Origin: a virus
Lineage: Duplodnaviria > Heunggongvirae > Uroviricota > Caudoviricetes
Strand: one strand, 5' to 3'
DNA length: 36,183 nucleotides
IMG/VR virus record: IMGVR_UViG_2551306525_000009
The position numbers and the translations under genes are program-made. Of the stretch, positions 25,886 through 36,183 are shown one piece after another. The notes under the pieces were generated by a model. It had not been told where the DNA came from. It was given only the letters and a program-made list of their open reading frames with translations, and ran no database searches. Position 1 is the stretch's first letter. The number at the start of each line of letters is the position of its first letter.

Positions 25886-26221
25886 TCATTCATGCGTTTT
25901 TTCTTCATGGTCTGTCACTTCTCCCCTGATAATTTCATTGCACAAATCCACGCACTCATTGCAGATGTAAACAGACGGTCCGGCAATCACCTTTATGACT
26001 TCGTGCTGGGATTTATTGCAGAAGCTGCAATAAATCGTCTTCTTGCCTGAAGTCCATGTTTTGCTGATTTCGCCAGACATCAGTTGCTTGATGTCTTTTT
26101 CACGACGAAGAACTATCTGGCCACATTCAGCTATTTTTTGGATGTTGACATTTTCTTCTTTCGCCAGCGCTTCCATTCGCTCAATCAGTCGCTGCGCTTT
26201 TTCTCTGTCAATGTGTTGCAT
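25886..26221 (-). CDS. small protein with ClpX-type C4 zinc-binding domain (ZBD) at its C-terminus
   Basis: [39 protein letters not shown] is near-identical to the E. coli ClpX N-terminal ZBD ([39 protein letters not shown], from memory); GGGGG RBS. Confidence 0.8.
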
Positions 26222-26284: not shown

Positions 26285-26596
26285 TTATTCGGGAAATAAC
26301 GCCCGGATATTTCTGGCCATCTGACTGGTTATCTGTGCGGTTGATACTGGCTGTGACGCGGGGCGTTCTGTCCTGGTTTGTGTCACCGATAACGCCTCAT
26401 CGTCAGCCCATGCAGCCAGTCGGTAAGCCTCTGCCGGATTCATTTTCAGAAGTGCCAGCCCGGCCAGAAAAGCCACGCGTTGGCCGCTTTTGCGGGCTTC
26501 TGGTGTAAGGCTGTCCAGCCAGGCGCATGCTTCGCCTTCGTTCTTGACGGCGGCGGGCTTCAGATAGAAACTTATCCGTCTGGTTGGTGTCGTCAT
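26285..26596 (-). CDS. parR: ParR-like ribbon-helix-helix centromere-binding protein
   Basis: RRISFYLKP...LDSLTPEARKSGQRVAFLAGLALLKMNP...IRALFPE parallels plasmid R1 ParR (from memory); AGGAG RBS. Confidence 0.7.
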   Translation of the reverse strand: MTTPTRRISFYLKPAAVKNEGEACAWLDSLTPEARKSGQRVAFLAGLALLKMNPAEAYRLAAWADDEALSVTQTRTERPASQPVSTAQITSQMARNIRALFPE

Positions 26597-26600
26597 TGGT

Positions 26601-27560
26601 TTACTCCTTGTCCATTGCGTACAGCCCATTAACCAGAGCAAACTGTGGCACCCCGTCCGCGATGAAAGTCGCATTAACTCCGCAGGCTTCGCGGATAGCG
26701 GGTGCCACAATCTCCGCCCCTCCACCGACAACCATCACCCGCCCGTAACCCGAAAAACCCGCCAGCGCGCGGATCACGCGTTGTTTCAGTGTTTCTTCCT
26801 TTTCACGAATAACCTCCATCAGGCTGGCGTAATGCGCGTCATTGTGGATGTGCTGGCGCAGCCAGGCTTCATTATGGCGATGTTCGATAATGGTATTGGC
26901 GATGTGGTGACTGGTGCGCATACCGTTAGTGGCCATCACCGACAGTACGGCATCGGCCATCAGAGAAACGCCTACGTGTGGATCGCAAAACACCTGGCTG
27001 ATACCTGCCAGTTGCCCCTGAACCTTTGCCACATCCAGCGTGGTTCCGCCCAAATCTACAATCAGCAGGGATTCAAACGGACTCATGTCAGCCAGTGCCT
27101 TAAAGCCAGCCGGAATGGATTCAGGCATAACCCGCACGTTACGGATAGTGAATGCTTCGCCGTTCTGGTACTCCACCGGGCGCATAACGTTCGCTTTTTT
27201 GCGGTTGATGTTGGCCATGTCCGGCTGTGCGTTTGTGTCGAAATACTCGCTCAGTGGCAGGGTGACAACCACATCCACCTCCTGTGGCGTGATGCCTGAT
27301 TTGACCAGCGCGTGATGAATGGCAATGACATTCACATCGCTGTACTGGTATTGCGTGTCGGTCGTCTGGACAAAGCGATCGCTGACCGGATCAAAACCAT
27401 AGCGCACGCCATCAAGCATGTAGTTCGCAGGCTGCGAGCCACCGAACGGCGCAGACCATTCCGACTTGAAGCTGTTCGGGCTGATGGCGTTGCGGCGTTC
27501 GCCGTTCTCAGTCCATGCCAGCTTGATGTTGGTGGAGCCGTCGTCGATACAAATTTTCAT
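26601..27560 (-). CDS. parM: ParM/StbA-family actin-like segregation ATPase
   Basis: MKICIDDGSTNIKL (phosphate-1), LIVDLGGTTLDV (phosphate-2), VVGGGAEIV (adenosine) motifs; 319 aa. Confidence 0.8.
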   Translation of the reverse strand: MKICIDDGSTNIKLAWTENGERRNAISPNSFKSEWSAPFGGSQPANYMLDGVRYGFDPVSDRFVQTTDTQYQYSDVNVIAIHHALVKSGITPQEVDVVVTLPLSEYFDTNAQPDMANINRKKANVMRPVEYQNGEAFTIRNVRVMPESIPAGFKALADMSPFESLLIVDLGGTTLDVAKVQGQLAGISQVFCDPHVGVSLMADAVLSVMATNGMRTSHHIANTIIEHRHNEAWLRQHIHNDAHYASLMEVIREKEETLKQRVIRALAGFSGYGRVMVVGGGAEIVAPAIREACGVNATFIADGVPQFALVNGLYAMDKE

Positions 27561-27596: not shown

Positions 27597-27627
27597 GGGA
27601 TTCTGAAATCCCGTTTTTGCCTGTTTT
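27597..27627. repeat. repeat unit 1: GGGATTctgaAATCCCGTTTTTGCCTGTTTT (internal 6-bp palindrome), between parM start and A stop
   Basis: read directly; second near-identical copy 74 bp away. Confidence 0.6.
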
Positions 27628-30463
27628 ATGCGCGCTTCATATATCGCGGCGCGTTTTTTTGCTCATTTATGGGATTTGTGAATCCCGTTTCTGTCTGTTT
27701 TTTGTTTCCACTGGTCAGGCCACCCCGCAGCAGGTCTGCTTTGCGGCGGGCGCGTTCAGTGGTTTCACTGATTCTCTGTGCGTGCTCTGCGTCGCGGATG
27801 GCGCGCAGCATGTCAGAAAGCACGGTAACGGGTGTTTTCATGGTGTTCTGGTCCTGCTGAAGTGTGGATGCCAGGCGTGCGGCGGCTTCAGGGTCTGATG
27901 CCCCCAGCTGTGCCAGATAGCTGGCGACCGGGTTATGGCGGATCTCCGTGCTGCTTACATCGTGATTACGGCTCAGGCGCTGCCAGAGCTGCGTGATTCG
28001 GCTGTCCGGGCGGGTATCCGGTTTGCGTACAATTTCAAATCCCTGCGGTGCAATGATGCTGCCGTCAACGTACAGACTGCCGCCCCGTAACAGGTGCTGC
28101 ATCTGTTGTTCACCGATATGCAGGCCAAGGGATTCAGCAGACTCCCGCCATTCTTTAGCGAGTAATTCGTGGTTATCAGGCAAAGGCCGCTGCTGTTTGC
28201 GGCTCTGTGTCCAGCTCTGCATTTCATCACTGTTGTTTTTTGCCTGTTTGTCACGCAGCGAACGCATCAGCGCCCGGCGTTCGTGCCGTTTCAGTGAGTG
28301 CAGCCATTCGTTCACTTCAACACCGTCAGGGATCTGCGGCCACGGTGCTGGCCGTTCTTCCGGCTGTTCTGTCCCGTTGTTGTCCGTTTCCTGTACACGG
28401 GGACAGTTATTGCCACGAGTCCAAGGGGCGGCAGGGCCGCCCTGAAGGTCAAAACCATTTTCGCGGGCGCTGTCTTCCGCTTCCGGTTTACGTCTTACCA
28501 GCTTCCAGTTATCCGGATGCGTGCACACACGGGAGGATTCCCCGATGAGTGGTGACCAGATCCCGTAAATCTGTACGCTCTGTTCGCCGTAATCGTTCAG
28601 CTCATCGGCGAGGTCGTAGGCGGTGCGAATCAGGTAGTCCTTGCGTGGAACAAGTACGCCGCCCTGTTTCTCTATATAGGTGGCAAAACATCCGGCATCA
28701 GCGGCAGCGAGTACCGCATCCATTGCGTCATCCTTCAGCCGTTGCGGGCCTTCCGGGTTGCGTGCCATCTGGCTGGCAAGGCGGCGGAGTTCACGCCACA
28801 CCTGACGGGAGGGGATGCCAAAGAACTGGAACTGGCGGACCCGGTGAAGGCGCGCCCAGCCGATGGCGCGCTCCACGCTCTCGGCCATTGATTTTCCGGT
28901 TTCGTGGTCAACGCGTGGTTTGCCCGTTTTCGGGTCGATGCCATCCACGGCGCGGCTGTCCAGGTTCTTTCCGATGTAGGTGGCGATGTAGCTGGTTGGC
29001 GTGCCTTTTGAGCCGTCTACATACTCCGCCTTAAAGCGCGGAGTAATATCATCACCCAGCTCGTGACGATCTTCCTGAATGGCAATATCGCGGGTGTGGG
29101 ACACAATGGTGTCGATTTCTTCCGGATGGGCAAAGACCATCATATGCCAGTGTACGGTGCCGTCATGGTGAGGCTCCACCGTGCGGATGCCATACCAGCG
29201 CAGGCCGTCGCGGTTCAGTTTTTTGCGGACCGCCGCAAAAAACGTGTTAACCAGGTAGTCGCTGGAGTCGCGCATGGTGGCCCCGTTCCATTTGGGGTTC
29301 GGATGACCGTTCTCCGTTGTTGCGTGGTATTTTGACGGGCAGGTGACAGTCAGAAACACCGCTTTGTCACCACGGGCTTCGGCCAGAAGTTCCAGCCCCT
29401 TCATGGTGGCCATCATTTCTGCCTTACGGTGAACCGGGTTACTTACTCCCGCGTAATACACTGTCTCGAGATCAATCGTGAACCCGTCTTCGTTTTCCAG
29501 CATGAAACTTTTCAGGAAATCGCGTGTTTTCTCGCGCTGTGCGCGAAACTCGCTTAACGCGTCCTGGCTCAGATAAGGCGATGTTTTTCTGGAAACCAGA
29601 CAGGCGGCGCGGAGTTGTTCTTCTCTCCACTCGCAACGTAACAGCCACAGTTTGCGTTTCCACCAGTCCGCACAGGTCAGGCGAAGGATTGCGCCCGGCA
29701 GCAGTTCCGTATCCGGTTCGCTCTTGTTCAGGGCTTCGTAATGTGGCGGCATGATGTGCAGGCGTAATGCGATACGAGCCAGCATCCGGTAAGCCTTCAA
29801 CATTACATCCATGGTCAGCTCGCCATCTCTGGCACCAAAGCCATCGCAGAGTGTTTCGAAGGTGCTGCTGAACATCGCCGCGGTCATGGTGGCCAGCGTC
29901 TGTATCTGGTGCTTGTTGAGCTGCGGCAGGTAAAGCAAATCGTCCAGGCGTTCGCGCCCGGCAAGGGAGCGATAACCCGGTGTCAGCCAGCGTCCGTCAG
30001 TGCGATCCAGACGTTCGAATATTTTGCGCAGGGGTCCGCGTGCATAGCGTTCCGCCTGCCAGCTCTTTTTACCTTTCTGGCGATCGGCTTCCTGTTTTTT
30101 GCGCAGGAAAGAGAGGTGGCGGCTCAGTGGTTCACGCAGATAAACAGGTAGTGCCTTTAGTGTGGCAAAGGCACGGGCTACCGGGTCTTGTTCTGTTGCC
30201 CGGCGCTTACTGATGATGCTCTGTGCCAGCTTTTCACGCTGTCCGGCTTCCTCAAGGGATGCCATGAGTTTTTTACCCATGGCGGATTGTGCGAAAAAGG
30301 CTTCTTCCTTCGCTTCCTGTTCTTCCTGTGCCCTTTTGTCCGCCTCAAGGTAGTAACGGATGGCGCGTTGCAGGTCGGTTTCAGTTTCCTGCCTGCGCTC
30401 CGTAAATCTGGCCGGATCAATGGCTGGCCGTGGTTCATTCCAGCTCCATGCAAACTCGCTCAT
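27626..30463 (-). CDS. A: replication initiation protein A (rolling-circle initiator, P2 gpA family)
   Basis: TVTCPSKYH, VEPHHDGTVHWHMMVF and YIATYIGKN active-site blocks as in P2/186 gpA; start either ATG 30463 (ATGA-coupled) or GTG 30490. Confidence 0.85.
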   Translation of the reverse strand: MSEFAWSWNEPRPAIDPARFTERRQETETDLQRAIRYYLEADKRAQEEQEAKEEAFFAQSAMGKKLMASLEEAGQREKLAQSIISKRRATEQDPVARAFATLKALPVYLREPLSRHLSFLRKKQEADRQKGKKSWQAERYARGPLRKIFERLDRTDGRWLTPGYRSLAGRERLDDLLYLPQLNKHQIQTLATMTAAMFSSTFETLCDGFGARDGELTMDVMLKAYRMLARIALRLHIMPPHYEALNKSEPDTELLPGAILRLTCADWWKRKLWLLRCEWREEQLRAACLVSRKTSPYLSQDALSEFRAQREKTRDFLKSFMLENEDGFTIDLETVYYAGVSNPVHRKAEMMATMKGLELLAEARGDKAVFLTVTCPSKYHATTENGHPNPKWNGATMRDSSDYLVNTFFAAVRKKLNRDGLRWYGIRTVEPHHDGTVHWHMMVFAHPEEIDTIVSHTRDIAIQEDRHELGDDITPRFKAEYVDGSKGTPTSYIATYIGKNLDSRAVDGIDPKTGKPRVDHETGKSMAESVERAIGWARLHRVRQFQFFGIPSRQVWRELRRLASQMARNPEGPQRLKDDAMDAVLAAADAGCFATYIEKQGGVLVPRKDYLIRTAYDLADELNDYGEQSVQIYGIWSPLIGESSRVCTHPDNWKLVRRKPEAEDSARENGFDLQGGPAAPWTRGNNCPRVQETDNNGTEQPEERPAPWPQIPDGVEVNEWLHSLKRHERRALMRSLRDKQAKNNSDEMQSWTQSRKQQRPLPDNHELLAKEWRESAESLGLHIGEQQMQHLLRGGSLYVDGSIIAPQGFEIVRKPDTRPDSRITQLWQRLSRNHDVSSTEIRHNPVASYLAQLGASDPEAAARLASTLQQDQNTMKTPVTVLSDMLRAIRDAEHAQRISETTERARRKADLLRGGLTSGNKKQTETGFTNPINEQKNAPRYMKRA
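27671..27701. repeat. repeat unit 2: GGGATTtgtgAATCCCGTTTCTGTCTGTTTT, inside the 3' coding end of gene A
   Basis: read directly; candidate parC-like centromere/operator or part of the replication origin. Confidence 0.6.
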
Positions 30464-30849
30464 GGCTGGTATCCCGTCACGCGCTGCCACTCCTGCGAGA
30501 AGATGGCGGAAAGGCGGTTAAATTCAGCGGTGTATTCACTCAGCGAGGCACACCCGCCAGCAGTGCGATGCGCCAGCATTGCCGCGAATACGGAGGCCGG
30601 GGAGTCGTAATACGCCAGCAGTGATTCGCCGTGTGGTGTCAGGCAGTGCAACGCCAGCCCGTGTGGTGTGAAGTCCACGCGGTAGCAGTCGTCTACTGTG
30701 AAATAAAGGGTGTCCGCATTCTCCGGTTTTGTAGTGCGTGCTCTGTTGTCACGACCACGGATGTAAAGATCAAATAATCCCTGAAGAACGGGAGCCAGAC
30801 GGGTGTCCTGTGTGCGCACCCATCTTGTGAAGTCATGAGCGTCAATCAT
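30460..30849 (-). CDS. hypothetical protein, 129 aa, stop overlapping A start
   Basis: ORF translationally coupled to A. Confidence 0.5.
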   Translation of the reverse strand: MIDAHDFTRWVRTQDTRLAPVLQGLFDLYIRGRDNRARTTKPENADTLYFTVDDCYRVDFTPHGLALHCLTPHGESLLAYYDSPASVFAAMLAHRTAGGCASLSEYTAEFNRLSAIFSQEWQRVTGYQP

Positions 30850-30921
30850 GCTGCAATTCTCTTTACTACAGATGTGCGAAGGCCTCCCGCCGCAAGGTGC
30901 AGGAAAGGCCCGGAACAGGAA

Positions 30922-31152
30922 TTAATGGAGTTTGTTTTGCTGCTGGATGAGCTGCTGAAGCTCGCGCAGATCATCCGCCAGATAGCTGAAAACAGCGGAT
31001 GAATAGAGGTTTGAAAGTTCGCAGCTACGCTCATGCAGCATATTGATGTGCATGATTTTAGCGACGCGGAATGCGCGGGAAAGTCTGCGGTTGATTTCAG
31101 TCTGGATGTGACGACGCTCCGCGATAGCGCGGTGCTGTTTGCGGTTTGCCAT
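30922..31152 (-). CDS. hypothetical basic small protein, 76 aa
   Basis: ORF with possible GAGG RBS; Arg/Lys-rich N-terminus. Confidence 0.4.
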   Translation of the reverse strand: MANRKQHRAIAERRHIQTEINRRLSRAFRVAKIMHINMLHERSCELSNLYSSAVFSYLADDLRELQQLIQQQNKLH

Positions 31153-31162
31153 GGTGTGGCCT

Positions 31163-31366
31163 CGTGTATAGTAAGTTTTGAAAACTCACCATCCAGAGGT
31201 GGAAAACTCGGGGTGGTGAGACGTACAGGGTTTCCACAACCGGCTATACACGAACCCGGCCCGACCGAAGTCGGCCCCATACGCCCCACCATAATTCTGA
31301 CGCGAAAAAGACGTGGCGATACGGTACGCACAAAAAAACCGCTGGCGCGGTTGTGCGCGTGTATAG
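31163..31366 (-). ncRNA. candidate cis-regulatory RNA region: 9-mer CGTGTATAG at 31163 and 31358 with its complement CTATACACG at 31244
   Basis: three copies read directly, allowing mutually exclusive pairings; located in the 5' UTR of the 76-aa ORF within a 367-bp non-coding gap. Confidence 0.3.
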
Positions 31367-31491
31367 TCAGCGGGGTGGAAATCCCGGCACCCGTTTTATG
31401 AGGTGCAGCGGAAATGTAACCTGACTGATTGCGGCATGGCAAGCGGTTTTTTTGTGAGAACGGCATACTAAAAAATCCTGATGCTGCTCCG

Positions 31492-31516
31492 GCCAGCGGT
31501 TTCCACTGGCCGGGTT
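31492..31516 (-). terminator. hairpin 3 nt after the SPFH gene stop (CCGGCCAG-cggtttcca-CTGGCCGG)
   Basis: 8-bp GC-rich stem read directly; T-tract on the minus strand only further downstream, so terminator assignment is tentative. Confidence 0.4.
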
Positions 31517-31519
31517 TAA

Positions 31520-32350
31520 TTACTTCACCGGAACAAACGGAACAGCGGTATTACTGGTCATGTATTGCGGCAGCGTGCCGTTCCATTTGTTGATAGCTTC
31601 CAGCTCCATAACGCCGGGGTTCTGGCGCAGAGCTTCACCGCGCAAACGAATGGCGTCGGCTTCAGCCTGGGCTTTTGTGCGAATGGCATCAGCCTGTCCG
31701 GCTGCTTCTGCGCGTAGCATGTTGGCTTCTGCTTCGCGCTGCTTGACTTCCTGTTCGCGTTGCAGAGTTTTCTGGTTTGCCGTGACTTTGGCATTAATGC
31801 TGTCGATAACGGTTGGTGGGTATTCCGGTTTACCGACATAAGAGAGGCTCATTACCTGAATGCCGATAGGTGTCATTTCTGCCTGAATGTCTTTAAGTGC
31901 TGAATCCAGCAGTTCAGACTTGCCACCGTCGATAAATTTATCGGTGGTCATTTTACTGGCCAGTCGGTTGAGTGCGTCGGCGATCTTCTGGCGCAGGTCA
32001 GTGTCGGTAATGTCATCCACGCCTTTGCGGTAGGTCTGAAACACTGTAGTAACTTTGGATGGATCAACCTTGTAGGCCACACCGATGTGATAGCCGATGG
32101 TTGTGCCGTCACTCATCTGAAAGCTGAACGGCTCATCGTAGGTCTTCATTTGTTTGAAGGTTGGGAAGATGTAAACCTCTGTATTCCAGCCTGTCCAGTA
32201 GCGGCCAACGCCAACCACTTCACCGACGCCTTTGTCGTCGCCCAGTTTGTTGACTTTGATGCCCACATTACCTGGCTCAACGCGATCGCAACCAACCAGC
32301 AGGATGGCAGCAAAAAGCGGGAGAATCTGAAAGAGTTTGAATCTCTTCAT
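31520..32350 (-). CDS. SPFH/band-7 (stomatin/HflK/C-like) lipoprotein
   Basis: lipobox LLVGC after signal peptide; SPFH-like core then Ala/Glu/Arg-rich coiled-coil tail (EADAIRLRGEALRQNPGVMELEAINKW), assigned by sequence character. Confidence 0.65.
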   Translation of the reverse strand: MKRFKLFQILPLFAAILLVGCDRVEPGNVGIKVNKLGDDKGVGEVVGVGRYWTGWNTEVYIFPTFKQMKTYDEPFSFQMSDGTTIGYHIGVAYKVDPSKVTTVFQTYRKGVDDITDTDLRQKIADALNRLASKMTTDKFIDGGKSELLDSALKDIQAEMTPIGIQVMSLSYVGKPEYPPTVIDSINAKVTANQKTLQREQEVKQREAEANMLRAEAAGQADAIRTKAQAEADAIRLRGEALRQNPGVMELEAINKWNGTLPQYMTSNTAVPFVPVK

Positions 32351-32550
32351 TGTTTGATTTCCTTGATGTACTTACTGAAAAGGCGAACAACGCCTGCCGG
32401 GTACAGCATGGCAATGAAAATGCCCAGCAATACCAGGAAGGAGCTGTCTGATGAAATCATTCGGGGGAGTAGTCCTGCATACAGAATGAGAGAAACGAGG
32501 ACGCATACCAGCGCCCACATGTATGCGCGAAACCAGGTCTTTTTGTTCAT
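32347..32550 (-). CDS. small two-TM membrane protein, translationally coupled to the SPFH gene
   Basis: 67 aa, two hydrophobic helices; stop overlaps SPFH start (ATGA). Confidence 0.55.
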   Translation of the reverse strand: MNKKTWFRAYMWALVCVLVSLILYAGLLPRMISSDSSFLVLLGIFIAMLYPAGVVRLFSKYIKEIKQ

Positions 32551-32561
32551 ATCGCGGTCCT

Positions 32562-32861
32562 TTACTGGTTAAGGAAGAAATCAAAAACCTTGTCGATGCG
32601 TTGCAGTAGCTCTCGTTGCATTGCTTCCGGCGTTTCTGGTTCACCAGGCGAACCCAGTGGTGCGCAGAAATCAGCGATTTCATGATGAAGCGCCAGGCGA
32701 ATGGCTGGAGACATGGTTCTGGCGTGCTCCAGCTCATCCAGCAGTGCCAGCACGGCAGACGGCGAGAGCATTGCGCGAAACGCCAGTAATTTTTGATGCG
32801 TTGCCATTCGTTGCAGGTCAATCGCCAGTTCGCGTAATTCCTGGAGGTTGATGGCGTTCAT
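32562..32861 (-). CDS. hypothetical protein, 99 aa
   Basis: ORF; start overlaps upstream stop (ATGA). Confidence 0.5.
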   Translation of the reverse strand: MNAINLQELRELAIDLQRMATHQKLLAFRAMLSPSAVLALLDELEHARTMSPAIRLALHHEIADFCAPLGSPGEPETPEAMQRELLQRIDKVFDFFLNQ

Positions 32862-33103
32862 GCTCTGGCTTCCTTCAGTAGCTGGTTAAACATGTTGGTA
32901 AGTGGATTGCCGCACCCGAACGGCATCGGGTTTATCTGGTAAGAAAAGCGACCGCCTGTTTTGCGTTCTTTTCTTATGACTGAACCGCTGCGCCAGAGTC
33001 GGCGTAACTCCGCATTAATGGCTGTGGTTGGGGTATTCAGTGCTGCGGCGATTTCTCCACCACTACACCCCGGATTGGCGGCGATATAGTCCAGAATGGT
33101 CAT
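32858..33103 (-). CDS. small winged-helix-like DNA-binding protein, 81 aa
   Basis: MTILDYIAANPGCSGGEIAAALNTPTTAINAELRRLWRSG resembles a MarR/ArsR-type recognition helix arrangement. Confidence 0.5.
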   Translation of the reverse strand: MTILDYIAANPGCSGGEIAAALNTPTTAINAELRRLWRSGSVIRKERKTGGRFSYQINPMPFGCGNPLTNMFNQLLKEARA

Positions 33104-33303
33104 CTGCGTGACTCCTGTACCTGTCGGATAAGGTTCACCCGCACCACATTCGTGGCGCAGAAGTAAGTGCCGTCAGTGAGATAGATGTGATGTGCATCCT
33201 TTTCTGAACGGTGTTTGTCGATTGTGGTAATCAGGCGTTCATCGACTTCGTATTCACGTCCTCTGGAGGTAAAACGAACGACAGGAAAATGCTTAATTGC
33301 CAT
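33100..33303 (-). CDS. hypothetical protein, 67 aa
   Basis: ORF coupled to downstream gene (ATGA). Confidence 0.45.
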   Translation of the reverse strand: MAIKHFPVVRFTSRGREYEVDERLITTIDKHRSEKDAHHIYLTDGTYFCATNVVRVNLIRQVQESRR

Positions 33304-33410
33304 TACGCCTCCTTGGCGTGTGCGAATACCTCCGCGAATGCGGATTGTTTTTACATTTTCTTATTTAACCTGTGGTTTTATTTGCTCTGTTATTCGCCAG
33401 TGAAAAAGCG

Positions 33411-33503
33411 TTCAATCTTTTTTACTGAATGAATAATTCGCATAATCCCAATGGCGCAGGCCACCGAAATAATCAGAACAAGCCATGAGATAAATATACT
33501 CAT
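33411..33503 (-). CDS. putative 30-aa hydrophobic micro-ORF (MSIFISWLVLIISVACAIGIMRIIHSVKKD)
   Basis: ATG overlaps the stop of the 80-aa gene (ATGA); single TM helix; identified manually. Confidence 0.3.
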
Positions 33504-33742
33504 GCGATATTCCCCAGCTTATACGGTTCAATATGTTCCCCGCATTCTGCGGCACAGATCAGCTCGGAAAGTTCGTTAAGTGCATCCAGATCATCAGCGT
33601 AAAAAGCGACGTCATACAAACTCCGGATTGCCCTGGTCAATGAGTCACGGGCTGCACGTTCAGCATGAGCGCCTGATGCACTTAAGCGAAAATAAAATCG
33701 TTCAAGTGCTTTGTTAATGAGAGTTTTATATTCTTTGCCCAT
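33500..33742 (-). CDS. hypothetical protein, 80 aa
   Basis: ORF in early operon. Confidence 0.45.
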   Translation of the reverse strand: MGKEYKTLINKALERFYFRLSASGAHAERAARDSLTRAIRSLYDVAFYADDLDALNELSELICAAECGEHIEPYKLGNIA

Positions 33743-33753
33743 CGCAACGCCCT

Positions 33754-34032
33754 TTAATCTGCTTTCTGAATTTCAGCTTCTGAATCCATACAAATAATTT
33801 CGATATATGGTTCATCGCCATTAACCTGACGTGCCTTTTCAGCTTCGCTAATGATTTCTCGCACGGTCTGGTACGGAAGCTCCACAGTCAGGCGCGTACC
33901 GTTCAGATAAACGTAAGTAGCTGCGTTTTTTTCGGATGGAACAACTCCGTCAATGGCTGATGCGCGTAATAACAGTTCACCGCGAAAATCAATAAAACGG
34001 ATAAATACACCTTGTGCATGCTCTTTGGTCAT
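33754..34032 (-). CDS. hypothetical protein, ~92 aa
   Basis: ORF; start at internal ATG (ORF track 34092). Confidence 0.45.
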   Translation of the reverse strand: MTKEHAQGVFIRFIDFRGELLLRASAIDGVVPSEKNAATYVYLNGTRLTVELPYQTVREIISEAEKARQVNGDEPYIEIICMDSEAEIQKAD

Positions 34033-34042
34033 AAAGCACCTG

Positions 34043-34384
34043 TTATAAATCAGCCTGTTTAATAAAACTTTGCCCACGAAGCAGACGATCAACCGTGCGA
34101 AGTGCTTCGTATAATGTGAAATCCTGCCCGAATTGATTGTCGCCGCAGCTCAATGCAAAAATGCGGTTTCCGGTAAACGGATTGCGTGGGCATTTGTGGA
34201 CCACGATTCCAGCTTTCTCAATCAGCCAGGCATGCTCGCCGATTTGTTTTACTGGGTAGCCATCCGGCGTTGCGTGTGTATCACTCAGGCTGTAGCGGAT
34301 GTTGCTGCGTGATGCACTGGTAGCGAAACGGTTAGCGTGGCGTTCAGCACCATTACGAAAGCGTGAATTACGTTGCTGTTTCAT
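34043..34384 (-). CDS. hypothetical protein, 113 aa
   Basis: ORF immediately downstream of cox. Confidence 0.45.
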   Translation of the reverse strand: MKQQRNSRFRNGAERHANRFATSASRSNIRYSLSDTHATPDGYPVKQIGEHAWLIEKAGIVVHKCPRNPFTGNRIFALSCGDNQFGQDFTLYEALRTVDRLLRGQSFIKQADL

Positions 34385-34402
34385 ATCAAAACTCCCTGCA
34401 TC

Positions 34403-34729
34403 TCATGCAGCAAAATTAAGAAAGCCTAATCCCAAATCTTCCGCCAGCTTCTTGGCTTTCTTAAGCCAGTGATTGCGCCAATCTTTACGCTCAGGAGGAA
34501 GCTGTTTCGTTGCGTCATAGACCATTTCGAGCCACTCATTCCAAAGGATGAGAAGACGGCGCGAACTCCCTTCCTCGCCTAAAACCTCGCGCTCAGTAGT
34601 TAGAGGGATGAGTTGACGCTCTACCAACTTTCTTACGGCTGATTCGGTCTTACCTGTGCGGCGGGAAAACTCATCGACGGTGATGGGGTCTGGGATCTTA
34701 AACAATGCCCTCAATAGTTCTTCATTCAT
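34403..34729 (-). CDS. cox: Cox-like excisionase / early repressor
   Basis: TVDEFSRRTGKTESAVRKLVERQLIPL parallels the P2 Cox HTH (from memory); divergent from C; GGGAG RBS. Confidence 0.7.
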   Translation of the reverse strand: MNEELLRALFKIPDPITVDEFSRRTGKTESAVRKLVERQLIPLTTEREVLGEEGSSRRLLILWNEWLEMVYDATKQLPPERKDWRNHWLKKAKKLAEDLGLGFLNFAA

Positions 34730-34824
34730 GTGATAATCTCCCTGTTTGGGGTATTTCTTGCGACGGATGCCCCAAATCAAACTCATTTGTATAAACATTA
34801 ATACAGACGTTGGAGAATTGCAAC
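34730..34824. promoter_or_regulatory. divergent early/repressor promoter-operator region (Pe/Pc) between cox and C
   Basis: 95-bp AT-rich intergenic region between divergent regulators; contains imperfect inverted repeat TTGGGGTAT...ATGCCCCAA. Confidence 0.5.
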
Positions 34825-35127
34825 ATGCGTATGACTATTGGAGAGCGCATAAAAATCATGCGTGAAAGCGAGAGACTTACTAGCCTCCCGGATACAGCAA
34901 AAATGCTTGGTTTAAACCGTGATGCTCTGTGGAGATATGAAAGCGGTAAAACTATCCCTAATGCTGAAGTAATTGAGCAAATACTAAACAACCCCAGATT
35001 TGAGAAATATGCGTTGTGGTTTATGACTGGAAAAATTGCGCCTGAATCCGGGCAGATAGCTCCGGCTCTCGCACACTATGGGCAAGAACCAACGGATTTA
35101 CCCCCATCCGAAAGGAAAATTGGTTAA
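34825..35127 (+). CDS. C: immunity repressor C
   Basis: WFMTGKIAPESGQIAPALAHYGQ near-identical to the P2 C C-terminal region (from memory); GGAG RBS. Confidence 0.85.
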   Translation: MRMTIGERIKIMRESERLTSLPDTAKMLGLNRDALWRYESGKTIPNAEVIEQILNNPRFEKYALWFMTGKIAPESGQIAPALAHYGQEPTDLPPSERKIG

Positions 35128-35193
35128 CCCTTTATTATTCTTACATTTTACAAACTGGAAATGTCTTTCCTCGTTTCACCGGAGGGCTTGCCA

Positions 35194-36183
35194 ATGGCAA
35201 TTAAAGCACTCGATGGTGGACGGTATAAAGTGGATGTTAGACCGCGTGGCCGAAGTGGACGTCGGATTCAGCGGATTTTTAAGAAAAAGGCAGATGCAGT
35301 GGCCTTTGAGCGTTATGTTCTCAGCCACATGCACGATAAGGAATGGCTTGAAAAGCCAACAGAGCAACGTCATCTCTCAGATCTGCTTCCGTTATGGTGG
35401 GAATTGGGTGGACGCAATAAGCCATATGCTAACGGCGTTCTAACCAGGTTGAAAAAAATCATCAAAGAAATGAATGATCCAAGGGTTAGCCAGATTAATG
35501 CTCGTTTCATGGCCGCTTATCGAAGCTCCCGTTTATCCTTGGGAGTAAAAGAGTCTACTGTTCGGCGTGATGAGTCGGATCTCGGAGGAATGTTTACACT
35601 CCTAGCAAATGCCGGGGAATTTCACGGAGAAAATCCGCTCCGCGCCCTCCCCTCTTTGAAACGAAAATCACCCGAAATGACGTATCTCACCACGGAAGAA
35701 ATCGCCAAATTACTGGATGCAGTAAGCGGTGATGCCCGGCGGATTACGCTACTTTGTCTCAGTACTGGGGCGAGATGGGGAGAAGCGAAAAATCTGCGCG
35801 CGGAACACATCATCAATAATCGCGTGACGTTTAACAAAACTAAAAACGGAAAAGTTCGAATTATTCCTGTCTCTGATGAAGTTGTTAGTGAGATCAAAAC
35901 AAAGAAATCCGGCCTTTTGTTTGACGTCAATTATGAGGAATATCGCAAGGTGCTTCGCAGTGTTAAGCCAGACCTACCAAAAGGACAGGCTGTACATGTT
36001 CTACGCCATACCTTTGCTGCTCACTTTATGATTAATGGAGGAAATATACTTACGCTCCAGCGAATTATGGGGCACGCCACGATCCAGCAAACTATGACCT
36101 ATGCGCACCTCGCTCCTGATTTCCTCCAGGATGCAATTTCACTTAATCCGTTAAAAGGAGGCATCCACATTTCATCCACATAA
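35194..36183 (+). CDS. int: tyrosine integrase
   Basis: LDGGRYKVDVRP, RVTFNKTKNGK, HVLRHTFAAHFMINGG, TLQRIMGH..IQQTMTYAHLAP blocks as in P2 Int; GGAGGG RBS. Confidence 0.9.
   Translation: MAIKALDGGRYKVDVRPRGRSGRRIQRIFKKKADAVAFERYVLSHMHDKEWLEKPTEQRHLSDLLPLWWELGGRNKPYANGVLTRLKKIIKEMNDPRVSQINARFMAAYRSSRLSLGVKESTVRRDESDLGGMFTLLANAGEFHGENPLRALPSLKRKSPEMTYLTTEEIAKLLDAVSGDARRITLLCLSTGARWGEAKNLRAEHIINNRVTFNKTKNGKVRIIPVSDEVVSEIKTKKSGLLFDVNYEEYRKVLRSVKPDLPKGQAVHVLRHTFAAHFMINGGNILTLQRIMGHATIQQTMTYAHLAPDFLQDAISLNPLKGGIHISST

Follow-up and report, generated by a model that had tools for sequence, protein, structure and literature searches.

In the early operon of phage P2 (cox-orf78-B-orf80-81-82-83-A), a divergent C/Cox switch is followed by small co-directional early genes and, distally, by gene A. 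The function of P2 B was reportedly treated by Odegrip et al. in 2000, as DnaB binding in lagging-strand synthesis. According to the P2 record, likewise, B is a DnaB-binding protein on which lagging-strand synthesis depends. The early operon of phage 186 is arranged as apl-cII-fil-dhr-CP79..CP84-A and has no B (none in the 186-like loci sampled); small regulatory or host-directed proteins are encoded next to its promoter, namely CII, Fil (a cell-division inhibitor) and Dhr (a host-replication inhibitor), followed by dispensable cargo and then A. Closest of all to the locus considered here are phage P88 and the Citrobacter phage phiSM, both functional and plaque-forming, in which the genes run in the order cox, DUF4761, a 92-aa gene, DUF4754, a 37-aa membrane protein, a 67-aa gene and a winged-helix gene (within gp03–gp12 of P88), continuing with an Ead/Ea22-like gene, a membrane protein, an SPFH lipoprotein, the derepression protein, a 121-aa gene, gpA and ParM. 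In the P88 and phiSM literature that we searched, the small genes of this series are not addressed and no functions are reported for them.

We compared with these systems the early region of a 36,183-nucleotide stretch of DNA (virus record IMGVR_UViG_2551306525_000009; hereafter, the window). Sequence comparison identifies the window as a P88-like E. coli prophage (genus Xuanwuvirus, family Peduoviridae) and its chain of small genes as ordinary early-operon genes. Specifically, P88 matches positions 31400–35200 at 94.2% nucleotide identity over 78% of the interval with identical gene order, and identity and synteny extend from gp03 to gp16; P88 differs in its immunity alleles (C and cox), in a p92 that is 81.5% identical, and in a longer Ead/Ea22-like p99. 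phiSM carries the same chain, with the same families in the same order. Among 80 P88-like viral contigs gpA is 88–98% identical, and many E. coli chromosomes match the same interval at 99.9% identity over 100% of its length, with the same gene set annotated. The chain has matches in 1400 of 5426 complete E. coli genomes, with at least 80% of it covered in 1290, so that by these alignments it is present, and annotated, in about a quarter of them, as a common prophage segment. The reading we consider likely is that the locus is the promoter-proximal portion of the early (lytic) operon, with small proteins that would most likely be non-replicative and accessory, and with no B-type loader.

Table 1. 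Features of the early region, in positions of the whole window
Feature	Coordinates	Strand	Size and assignment
C-type immunity repressor (HTH)	34825–35127	+	Pfam HTH_31, HTH_3; RefSeq CDS at the same position
Control region between C (+) and cox (-)	34730–34824	.	Candidate minus-strand early promoter TTGCAA-N17-TAATGT
Cox-like excisionase/repressor	34403–34729	-	108 aa; first early-operon gene; phrog_272; RefSeq 'Cox family'
DUF4761 protein	34043–34384	-	113 aa; PF15958
p92	33754–34032	-	92 aa; phrog_3800
DUF4754 protein	33500–33742	-	80 aa; PF15946
tm37	33390–33503	-	37-aa single-pass membrane micro-protein
Intergenic gap	33304–33389	-	86 nt; boundary between conserved and mosaic blocks
p67	33100–33303	-	67 aa; phrog_3459
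wHTH81	32858–33103	-	81 aa; stand-alone winged helix; MarR_2, HTH_24, phrog_1687
p99	32562–32861	-	99 aa; phrog_4144
Inserted accessory pair (moron)	31520–32550	-	67-aa membrane protein (tm67), 32347–32550; 276-aa SPFH/Band-7 lipoprotein, 31520–32350
isrK-like leader and C4/CI-type antisense RNA	31209–31406	-	Leader 31332–31406, antisense RNA 31209–31296; Rfam 63.5 and 77.3 bits, both above gathering scores
P4 epsilon 'derepression protein' homologue	30922–31152	-	76 aa; PF25738, 29.5 bits
p121	30460–30825	-	phrog_3237; immediately upstream of gpA; conserved in deep relatives
gpA-type rolling-circle replication initiator	27626–30448	-	940 aa; Phage_GPA, E=1.7e-130

The seven tightly packed minus-strand small genes behind cox (Table 1) form a compact, co-directional, translationally coupled set in the early operon of a P2-family prophage. 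Several ATGA overlaps had been claimed in the first-pass annotation, and they occur at three chain junctions (DUF4754/tm37, p67/wHTH81 and wHTH81/p99) as well as at tm67/SPFH; the remaining chain junctions are gaps of 10–18 nt and one of 86 nt. A Shine-Dalgarno-like sequence precedes every chain start, and pN/pS is 0.06–0.27 for each chain gene (alleles across 80 related viral contigs). The chain of small ORFs previously proposed between cox and the SPFH pair is thus upheld by its coordinates, ribosome-binding sequences and pN/pS values, and its members are real genes under purifying selection, beyond chance ORFs. Some boundaries needed correction: the six or more ORFs of 67–113 aa that had been placed in 32858–34384 do number six, but the 99-aa gene lies outside that interval; the hydrophobic micro-ORF exists, but at its full 37 aa rather than as 30 aa at 33411–33503; and an ORF given as 112 aa, starting at an upstream TTG, is most likely the 92-aa p92, for which RefSeq, P88 and the PHROG profile all agree on the ATG at 34032. 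Among database clusters, some p92 variants carry a frameshift that gives them a different, basic C-terminus; as none occurred in the 65 viral contigs that carry p92, we took them for assembly errors or rare alleles. In the 86-nt gap there was no convincing minus-strand terminator and the RNA fold was marginal (z-score –2.5), so that an internal terminator or structured RNA at this point was rejected.

Ahead of the chain lies a P2-type switch: its C repressor is short and, unlike in 186, there is no CII. The motif TTGCAA-N17-TAATGT in the C/cox intergenic region is a putative early promoter, and a Pe/Pc arrangement is annotated in the P2 record. The cox gene lies where it is expected, as the first gene divergent from C, and is found by tblastn with P2 Cox at 1e-6; its match to Phage_Cox (PF10743; E=1.1e-5) spans profile positions 8–85 of 87 at 25.6 bits, against a cut-off of 27.5. 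Downstream of the chain, the SPFH protein matches Band_7 at E=7.6e-31, and the membrane/SPFH pair occurs in only 9 of the 80 P88-like contigs and is common to Stx2 phages at 92.8% nucleotide identity. The next segment, 30922–31406, has the same two Rfam matches in the same order (isrK, then C4) as the left operon of P4, followed by the epsilon homologue (29% identity to P4 epsilon, E=1e-8, BLASTP). Here, however, the P4-type cassette sits in a helper-type phage upstream of gpA, whereas in P4 it lies upstream of the alpha primase, and the window contains no homologue of P4 orf151, orf106, orf88 or the ORF annotated as cI. A sigma-70-like site upstream of isrK (31442–31413) suggests that gpA may have its own promoter, resembling PLE of P4, and consequently the chain and gpA need not share one transcript. 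gpA itself is found by tblastn with P2 A (1e-84) and 186 A (1e-93); it is 940 aa long in the window and 761 aa in P2.

Cox and A are the only proteins that the window was found to share with the P2 early operon, since orf78, B and orf80-83 have no homologue there by tblastn or hhalign; among 186 early proteins only A shows sequence or profile similarity. Every hhalign probability between the chain families and the P2, 186 and P4 early proteins was below 10%, and sensitive searches, which might have turned the chain into standard P2 early genes, thus left it distinct. For B in particular, the first-pass annotation had seen no homologue, and three methods agree with it. A tblastn search of the whole window with P2 B (166 aa) gave a best E of 0.17; P2 B itself matches phrog_235, which is its family, together with phrog_14551, phrog_602 and phrog_5349, and no chain ORF matches any of the four at E<=0.01; and in hhalign comparisons with B, the profiles of DUF4761, p92, DUF4754 and p67, as well as p99 and p121, all reached at most 0.4% probability. 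Sequence or profile homology to P2 gpB is absent from the chain.

The same annotation had treated B as expected in this operon, and this expectation did not survive a wider survey. Of 50,697 phage records just 76 carried B, every one of them P2-proper (75 at >=95% identity and one partial at 85%), and it was present in none of 80 gpA-bearing prophages from other Enterobacterales species, which makes its absence the rule. In 80 viral loci that carry P2 B the sequences are 99–100% identical; because homologues are this uniform, a B profile deeper than a single sequence cannot be built, which is itself informative. On this distribution we assign B specifically to P2's own genus, Peduovirus. A gene confined to that genus is not expected in the window, and the impression of a missing B arises when the whole family is measured against P2 itself; B is accordingly unsuitable as a completeness marker for P2-like prophages.

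A protein unrelated to B might nonetheless do its work, with p92, p67 or p121 recruiting or loading DnaB for lagging-strand synthesis. Non-homologous replacement of phage helicase loaders has precedent (PMC11087808), and the three proteins are the only small early genes retained with gpA and ParM in a distant relative, L165 (29–38% identity). The p92 homologue, at 34%, lies directly after cox in the deep relative that bears it; p67 homologues in distant relatives are 34–44% identical, and both p67 and p121 are also kept in L168 and L170. Against this stand the lack of any sequence or profile similarity to B, the evident dispensability of a phage-encoded loader in gpA prophages, all 80 of those sampled being without B, and the predicted structure of p92. 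In that model a helix and an acidic tail accompany a small beta-barrel (AlphaFold2 pLDDT 82.7, pTM 0.71), and Foldseek found only weak PH-like, Sac7d-like and LytTR-like matches in the PDB (E>=0.02, TM<=0.5). In a library of predicted viral structures, p92 resembles many unnamed 60–80-aa phage proteins (E from 4e-4, TM 0.5–0.6), a few of which are labelled 'flagellar and swarming motility protein', and the FlbD-like resemblance is weak; these matches were judged too weak for a functional call and none was made. Overall, we regard replacement of B by one of these proteins as highly improbable.

The remaining chain proteins had been called orphans apart from one winged-helix-like product, which is overstated insofar as they belong to DUF4761, DUF4754 and PHROGs 3800, 3459 and 4144, although these families are functionally uncharacterised and, as judged from their matches, taxonomically narrow. 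The DUF4761 protein covers its profile completely (232.7 bits against a cut-off of 27, positions 1–105 of 105), as does the DUF4754 protein (181.7 bits against 27, positions 1–80 of 80), which appears helical from its sequence; neither family was mentioned in any paper found by a literature search. In the DUF4761 model (AlphaFold2 pLDDT 70.9) the N-terminus is basic and disordered and leads into a small beta core and a helix; Foldseek found no PDB fold match for it. p99 is a mosaic protein whose N-terminal Ead/Ea22-like (PF13935) segment is confined to residues 21–48 and sub-threshold (18.7 bits against 27), and tm37 has no Pfam, PHROG or NCBIfam match and, by these profiles, no homology to small membrane toxins of the Hok, Ldr, TisB or Ibs types. 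p92 and p67 look alike by eye, but hhalign gives the pair a probability of 1% and all chain families less than 10% among themselves. When five ORFs were concatenated into one query and 1.84 billion representative proteins were searched exhaustively with HMMER, only 99 matches were returned for all five combined, mostly close relatives or fragments; the same query in a word-prefiltered search, where the prefilter favours long proteins, returned only two mis-called fusion ORFs. PDB sequence searches with DUF4761, p92 and DUF4754 yielded nothing below E=0.07. The searches proposed earlier for each ORF therefore delivered families and a winged helix, but no functional match in PADLOC, Pfam, NCBIfam, PDB sequence or fold searches (DUF4761 and p92 being the proteins modelled); functional homology was found for no chain protein other than the winged helix.

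That winged helix is confirmed in wHTH81, with 28.2 bits for MarR_2 against a cut-off of 27 and 25.9 bits for HTH_24 against 21.9. A typical MarR regulator is some 140 aa long and has dimerisation helices on both the N- and the C-terminal side of its winged helix-turn-helix; wHTH81 has 81 aa, aligns to positions 69–149 of the 162 in phrog_1687, and does not show the full-length MarR architecture. Its profile matches suggest that it is probably DNA-binding, which would suit a lysis-lysogeny control module in which wHTH81, perhaps together with p67, plays the part of 186 CII or serves as a secondary regulator of the switch or of late genes. In favour of such a module, p67-like and wHTH-like segments both match a single 246-position profile, phrog_19053, and a helix-turn-helix protein adjoins the p67 homologue in L165. 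However, wHTH81 has no similarity to 186 CII, the P2-type C/Cox switch works without CII, and the gene is inconstant: in 19 P88-like contigs no homologue could be detected although p67 is there, and across 80 related contigs its alleles form two classes. We therefore hold such a module to be distinctly unlikely.

Comparison across relatives reveals two parts in the chain, a conserved block near the promoter and a block of mosaic cargo. Among the 80 P88-like contigs DUF4761, p92, DUF4754, tm37 and p67 are near-universal, whereas wHTH81, p99 and SPFH are variable. Taken with more distant loci, this distribution points to DUF4761, p92, DUF4754 and tm37 as the core of the lineage, and to p67, wHTH81 and p99, followed here by the inserted membrane/SPFH pair, as mosaic cargo. 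The divergent L168 and L170 retain cox-DUF4761-...-DUF4754-tm41, then carry other cargo, and resume with derepression-p121-gpA; in relatives the cargo segment holds an exonuclease, a Dam methylase, a ParE-like gene and others, and its position would correspond to that of P2 orf80-83 and 186 CP79-84. By alignment, tm37 is the most conserved gene of the chain (70–76% identical in L168, L169 and L170, versus 41–63% for neighbouring genes) and is always coupled to the DUF4754 stop codon; DUF4754 homologues at 41–45% identity show the same stop/start coupling to a micro-protein. The promoter-proximal genes behave as a conserved lineage core and not as fast-turnover accessory genes.

This pattern also bears on whether some or all of the small proteins form an anti-defence or host-takeover cassette, inhibiting host defence or shutting down host processes early. 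The proteins are small, presumably early-expressed and taxonomically narrow, and relatives swap cargo (Dam methylase, ParE-like gene, exonuclease, SPFH pair) in the segment to which the distal half of the chain belongs. The promoter-proximal genes, by contrast, are conserved in order and sequence with pN/pS near 0.1 (0.06 for DUF4761; 0.27 for tm37) and show no island-like turnover. Nor is there a suggestive match in PADLOC, Pfam or NCBIfam: PADLOC reported none for the chain ORFs and two marginal matches beside them, to cox (E=0.0017) and the 67-aa membrane protein (E=0.0078), while the best anti-CRISPR fold match of the DUF4761 model, AcrIF24, was non-significant (E=0.68, TM 0.30). A cassette of this kind seems to us rather unlikely.

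Returning to the early-operon reading, relief of C repression would start leftward transcription from the candidate promoter in the C/cox intergenic region, so that Cox would be the first product, and the 10–18-nt gaps and ATGA stop/start overlaps would tie translation of the small genes that follow into a single tightly coupled unit; beyond the chain would follow the P4-type CI-RNA/epsilon cassette, p121 and the gpA initiator. By analogy with 186, whose cII, fil and dhr occupy matching positions, the small proteins would probably target host physiology, with tm37 working at the membrane, and regulation, through the winged-helix protein, and position together with this analogy makes early accessory or host-directed functions most likely. 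As B is specific to Peduovirus, no B-type DnaB loader would be encoded, and loading of DnaB would presumably be left to host DnaC. Phage 186 reportedly needs host dnaC. An essential phage function would also account for the strong purifying selection and for how deeply p92, p67 and tm37 are conserved. More ambitiously, either DUF4761-p92-DUF4754-tm37 could be an unrecognised host-directed early module of Xuanwuvirus, with tm37 or its 37–41-aa counterparts as effector, or one of p92, p67 and p121 a non-homologous substitute for B; we think it unlikely that one or the other is the case. Possible targets of such an effector are the host envelope, cell division and membrane proteolysis. What the locus does offer is a set of uncharacterised early genes, under purifying selection and carried by roughly one in four complete E. 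coli genomes, of which one encodes a 37-aa membrane micro-protein that is very well conserved; and since P88 and phiSM are cultivable, the genes of the chain are open to deletion one by one.

The segment at 31400-35200, which includes the chain of seven small genes between cox and the SPFH pair, aligned with Escherichia phage P88 (genus Xuanwuvirus, family Peduoviridae) at 94.2% identity over 78% of its length, and with several E. coli chromosomes at 99.9% identity over 100%. Gene order in P88 is identical to that in the window, and in the matching chromosomes, where the same genes are annotated, the prophage end adjoins pheL/pheA. The chain alone (32858-34384) was matched in 1400 of 5426 complete E. 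coli genomes, with at least 80% covered in 1290. Both P88 and its relative phiSM, a Citrobacter phage, are temperate and form plaques. We are highly confident that the element comprises the early genes of a P88-like prophage; the segment is a very common, annotated prophage stretch, with genes in existing families without assigned function. The whole chain also occurs, at 95.8% identity, in a 34,461-bp plasmid-collection record (NZ_CP148288.1); together with the ParM and partition genes directly downstream of the replication initiator gene gpA, this may point to phages of this type existing as episomes or plasmid-prophages.

Features of the early region and its surroundings, with junctions to the preceding gene (nt) and pN/pS of alleles in 80 related viral contigs against the window copy
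Feature	Coordinates	Strand	Junction	pN/pS	Remarks
Cox-like gene	34403-34729	-			one flank of chain
DUF4761	34043-34384	-	+18	0.06	113 aa; Pfam DUF4761, 232.7 bits
p92	33754-34032	-	+10	0.11	92 aa; ATG at 34032
DUF4754	33500-33742	-	+11	0.11	80 aa; Pfam DUF4754, 181.7 bits
tm37	33390-33503	-	-4 (ATGA)	0.27	37-aa membrane micro-protein
terminator-like hairpin and T-run	33331-33344	+			antisense to operon, in tm37/p67 gap
p67	33100-33303	-	+86	0.09	67 aa
wHTH81	32858-33103	-	-4	0.20	81 aa; MarR_2 28.2 bits, HTH_24 25.9 bits
p99	32562-32861	-	-4	0.25	99 aa; sub-threshold Ead/Ea22 segment
membrane protein	32347-32550	-	+11		67 aa; other flank of chain
SPFH gene	31520-32350	-	-4		other flank of chain
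sigma-70-like site	31442-31413	-			just upstream of isrK-type element
28-nt inverted repeat	31319-31346 / 31439-31466				brackets isrK-type element
isrK-type element	31332-31406	-			Rfam, 63.5 bits; directly downstream of SPFH gene
C4/CI-type antisense RNA	31209-31296	-			Rfam, 77.3 bits
"derepression protein"	30922-31152	-			76 aa; PF25738
gpA	27626-30448	-			940 aa
ParM	26601-27560	-			
partition protein	26285-26593	-			
zinc-finger protein	25886-26221	-			111 aa; ClpX-type C4 (PF06689, E=1.3e-17); downstream of partition genes

Synonymous changes lay well above the neutral level in the alleles of every chain gene, with pN/pS of 0.06-0.27, and the chain ORFs are therefore real genes. All have an ATG start with a Shine-Dalgarno-like sequence upstream on reading the sequence. 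The first-pass annotation of small, coupled ORFs holds in essence, including its ATGA overlaps; within the chain, two further -4 junctions accompany that of tm37. Three of its details do not: the micro-ORF, described as 30 aa ending at 33411, is longer and ends at 33390; a "112-aa" ORF had been read from a TTG upstream of the p92 ATG, the start that agrees with RefSeq, with P88 as annotated and with the PHROG profile; and a sixth ORF of 67-113 aa, placed within 32858-34384, falls outside that interval.

One of these ORFs had been called winged-helix-like and the rest orphans. The former reading is borne out by wHTH81, whose winged-helix core scores just over the cut-offs of both Pfam families; the latter is overstated. 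The gene without a match to any Pfam or PHROG family is tm37, which among phage records is found in Xuanwuvirus only. Besides the two Pfam families, PHROGs 2492, 3800, 2549, 3459, 19053/1687 and 4144 (no assigned function) take in all other chain genes. When the five soluble ORFs were concatenated and searched exhaustively with HMMER against 1.84 billion representative proteins, only 99 matches in total came back, most of them fragments or relatives above 50% identity, and the homologues listed for p92 and DUF4761 are nearly all from Enterobacteriaceae. By these sequence comparisons the chain families are therefore narrow, catalogued and without assigned function. Neither DUF4761 nor DUF4754 was mentioned in any paper found by literature search. 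An assembly named 'Vagococcus sp. WN89Y' is the recorded source of a DUF4761 protein; it also contains three different enterobacterial P2-family prophages (contigs L171, L205 and L249), one with a gpA 91% identical to the window's, and is probably mislabelled or contaminated. An anti-defence cassette, the reading nearest to the first-pass idea of host takeover or anti-defence, appears rather unlikely; NCBIfam and PADLOC profiles gave the chain no further assignment.

The p92 AlphaFold2 model (20-sequence alignment; pLDDT 82.7, pTM 0.71) comprises five strands, a helix at 54-71, two more strands and an acidic disordered tail. Against the PDB it gave nothing under E=0.02 and no TM-score over 0.5, the top fold resemblances being weak ones to PH-like, Sac7d-like and LytTR-like domains. 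In a viral predicted-structure library it resembled numerous phage proteins of 60-80 aa without names, with the label "flagellar and swarming motility protein" on a few of them (E from 4e-4, TM 0.5-0.6). The DUF4761 model (pLDDT 70.9) has a basic disordered N-terminus followed by a beta core and helix, with a best PDB match of E=0.68; PDB sequence searches with DUF4761, p92 and DUF4754 were empty. The predicted p92 and DUF4761 models, like the PDB searches, offer no basis for functional assignment.

Comparison with 80 P88-like viral contigs (gpA 88-98% identical) separates steady from variable genes. DUF4761, p92, DUF4754, tm37 and p67 are nearly always there, at 77-100% amino acid identity; wHTH81 falls into two allele classes and has no detectable homologue in 19 contigs with p67, and p99 is frequently alignable in part only. 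Several immunity types occur among int, C and cox. The membrane/SPFH pair (a 67-aa membrane protein and an SPFH/Band-7 lipoprotein), present in only 9 of the 80, is an accessory insertion; Stx2-converting phages share it at 92.8% nucleotide identity, under the annotation 'serine protease'. The divergent relatives L168 and L170 share a skeleton of int, C, cox, DUF4761 (52-63%), DUF4754 (42-45%) and a 41-aa micro-ORF overlapping the DUF4754 stop. Their cargo differs (Rv2179c-like exonuclease, ParE-like gene, D12 Dam methylase, DUF4406, HTH protein) and includes a homologue of p67 as well as a p99-like fragment; beyond it lie the derepression gene, a homologue of p121 (encoded just upstream of gpA) and gpA. 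The more distant L165 (gpA 56%, ParM 62% identity) keeps only p92 (34%, straight after cox), p67 (38%) and p121 (29%); in the equivalent gap it has a hydrophobic ORF of 34 aa, unrelated in sequence. Given these steady and variable genes and the shared skeleton, the chain divides into a conserved block next to the promoter and, behind it, a mosaic block of cargo, paralleling the annotated layouts of P2 (orf78-B, then orf80-83) and 186 (cII-fil-dhr, then CP79-84). The best-conserved chain gene is tm37, at 70-76% identity in L168, L169 and L170, where its neighbours reach 41-63%; its ATGA overlap with the DUF4754 stop is constant, and the C-terminal KRRK of its relatives is absent from the window copy.

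The first-pass annotation found no recognisable P2 B, the gene for the DnaB-binding replication protein, and our searches agree. When P2 cox, orf78, B, orf80-83, A and orf91, and 186 apl, cII, fil, dhr, CP79-84 and A, were queried by tblastn against the whole window, matches were confined to cox (1e-6) and to A (1e-84 and 1e-93); B, the remaining P2 queries and 186 apl, cII, fil, dhr and CP79-84 gave none. That the winged-helix protein is a CII-like regulator is a reading we consider improbable; in the main reading it would be a small DNA-binding accessory protein. P2 B has no Pfam family and belongs to phrog_235, with weaker matches to three other PHROGs; no chain ORF matches any of the four. 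Family alignments of DUF4761, p92, DUF4754 and p67, together with p99 and p121, gave hhalign probabilities below 10% against every early protein of P2 and 186, and likewise against P4 proteins. With tblastn, PHROG and hhalign all lacking a B match, B is, at the level of sequence, truly absent. A non-homologous substitute for it among p92, p67 and p121, the three genes that L165 keeps, seems very unlikely.

Nor was B to be expected in this operon, as had been supposed. It matched 76 of 50,697 phage records, all P2-proper (75 at ≥95% identity, one an 85% partial), and none of 80 gpA-bearing prophages sampled across different Enterobacterales species (gpA 31-91% identical to the window's), many of which have 186-type cII, fil, CP79 and CP80. 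B is specific to the P2 genus, so the missing-B anomaly dissolves: members of the family normally lack B. Phage 186 reportedly requires dnaA and dnaC of its host (Hooper and Egan 1981).

Downstream of the SPFH gene, the isrK-type element and C4/CI-type RNA precede the derepression gene, whose product is 29% identical to P4 epsilon (E=1e-8). In P4, too, these two Rfam matches occur, in unchanged order, a short way upstream of epsilon, and the same holds for L165, L168 and L170. The interval 30922-31442 is a P4-type immunity cassette within a helper-type P2-family phage, with the sigma-70-like site just ahead of its isrK-type element. The replication genes p121 and gpA, lying behind this cassette, may have their own promoter; the chain and gpA are therefore perhaps not one transcription unit. 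Spurious long ORFs across the isrK/C4 region have been called as proteins: a 206-aa ORF in the window (30846-31466), a 211-aa 'Phage_ASH' call in L165 (2952-3587) and, in public protein sets, 305-309-aa fusions of p99 with such an ORF (P0001, P0002). The gpA product is longer than those of P2 (761 aa) and 186 (694 aa); the P2 A alignment stops at ~28061, leaving a ~145-aa C-terminal extension without P2 counterpart and unlike the L165 gpA C-terminus.

On derepression, transcription from the early promoter would run through cox and the chain, whose coupled translation would supply lineage-specific early accessory proteins. The membrane micro-protein would be produced in fixed coupling with DUF4754, several of the small soluble proteins would probably bind host or phage partners, and replication would rely on gpA and host functions. 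We propose such a non-replicative accessory or host-directed role only tentatively, and the anti-defence, B-substitute and CII-like readings overlap rather than exclude one another; identity, anatomy and role taken together form an explanation that is probably correct. The finding is real but ordinary, and already known.
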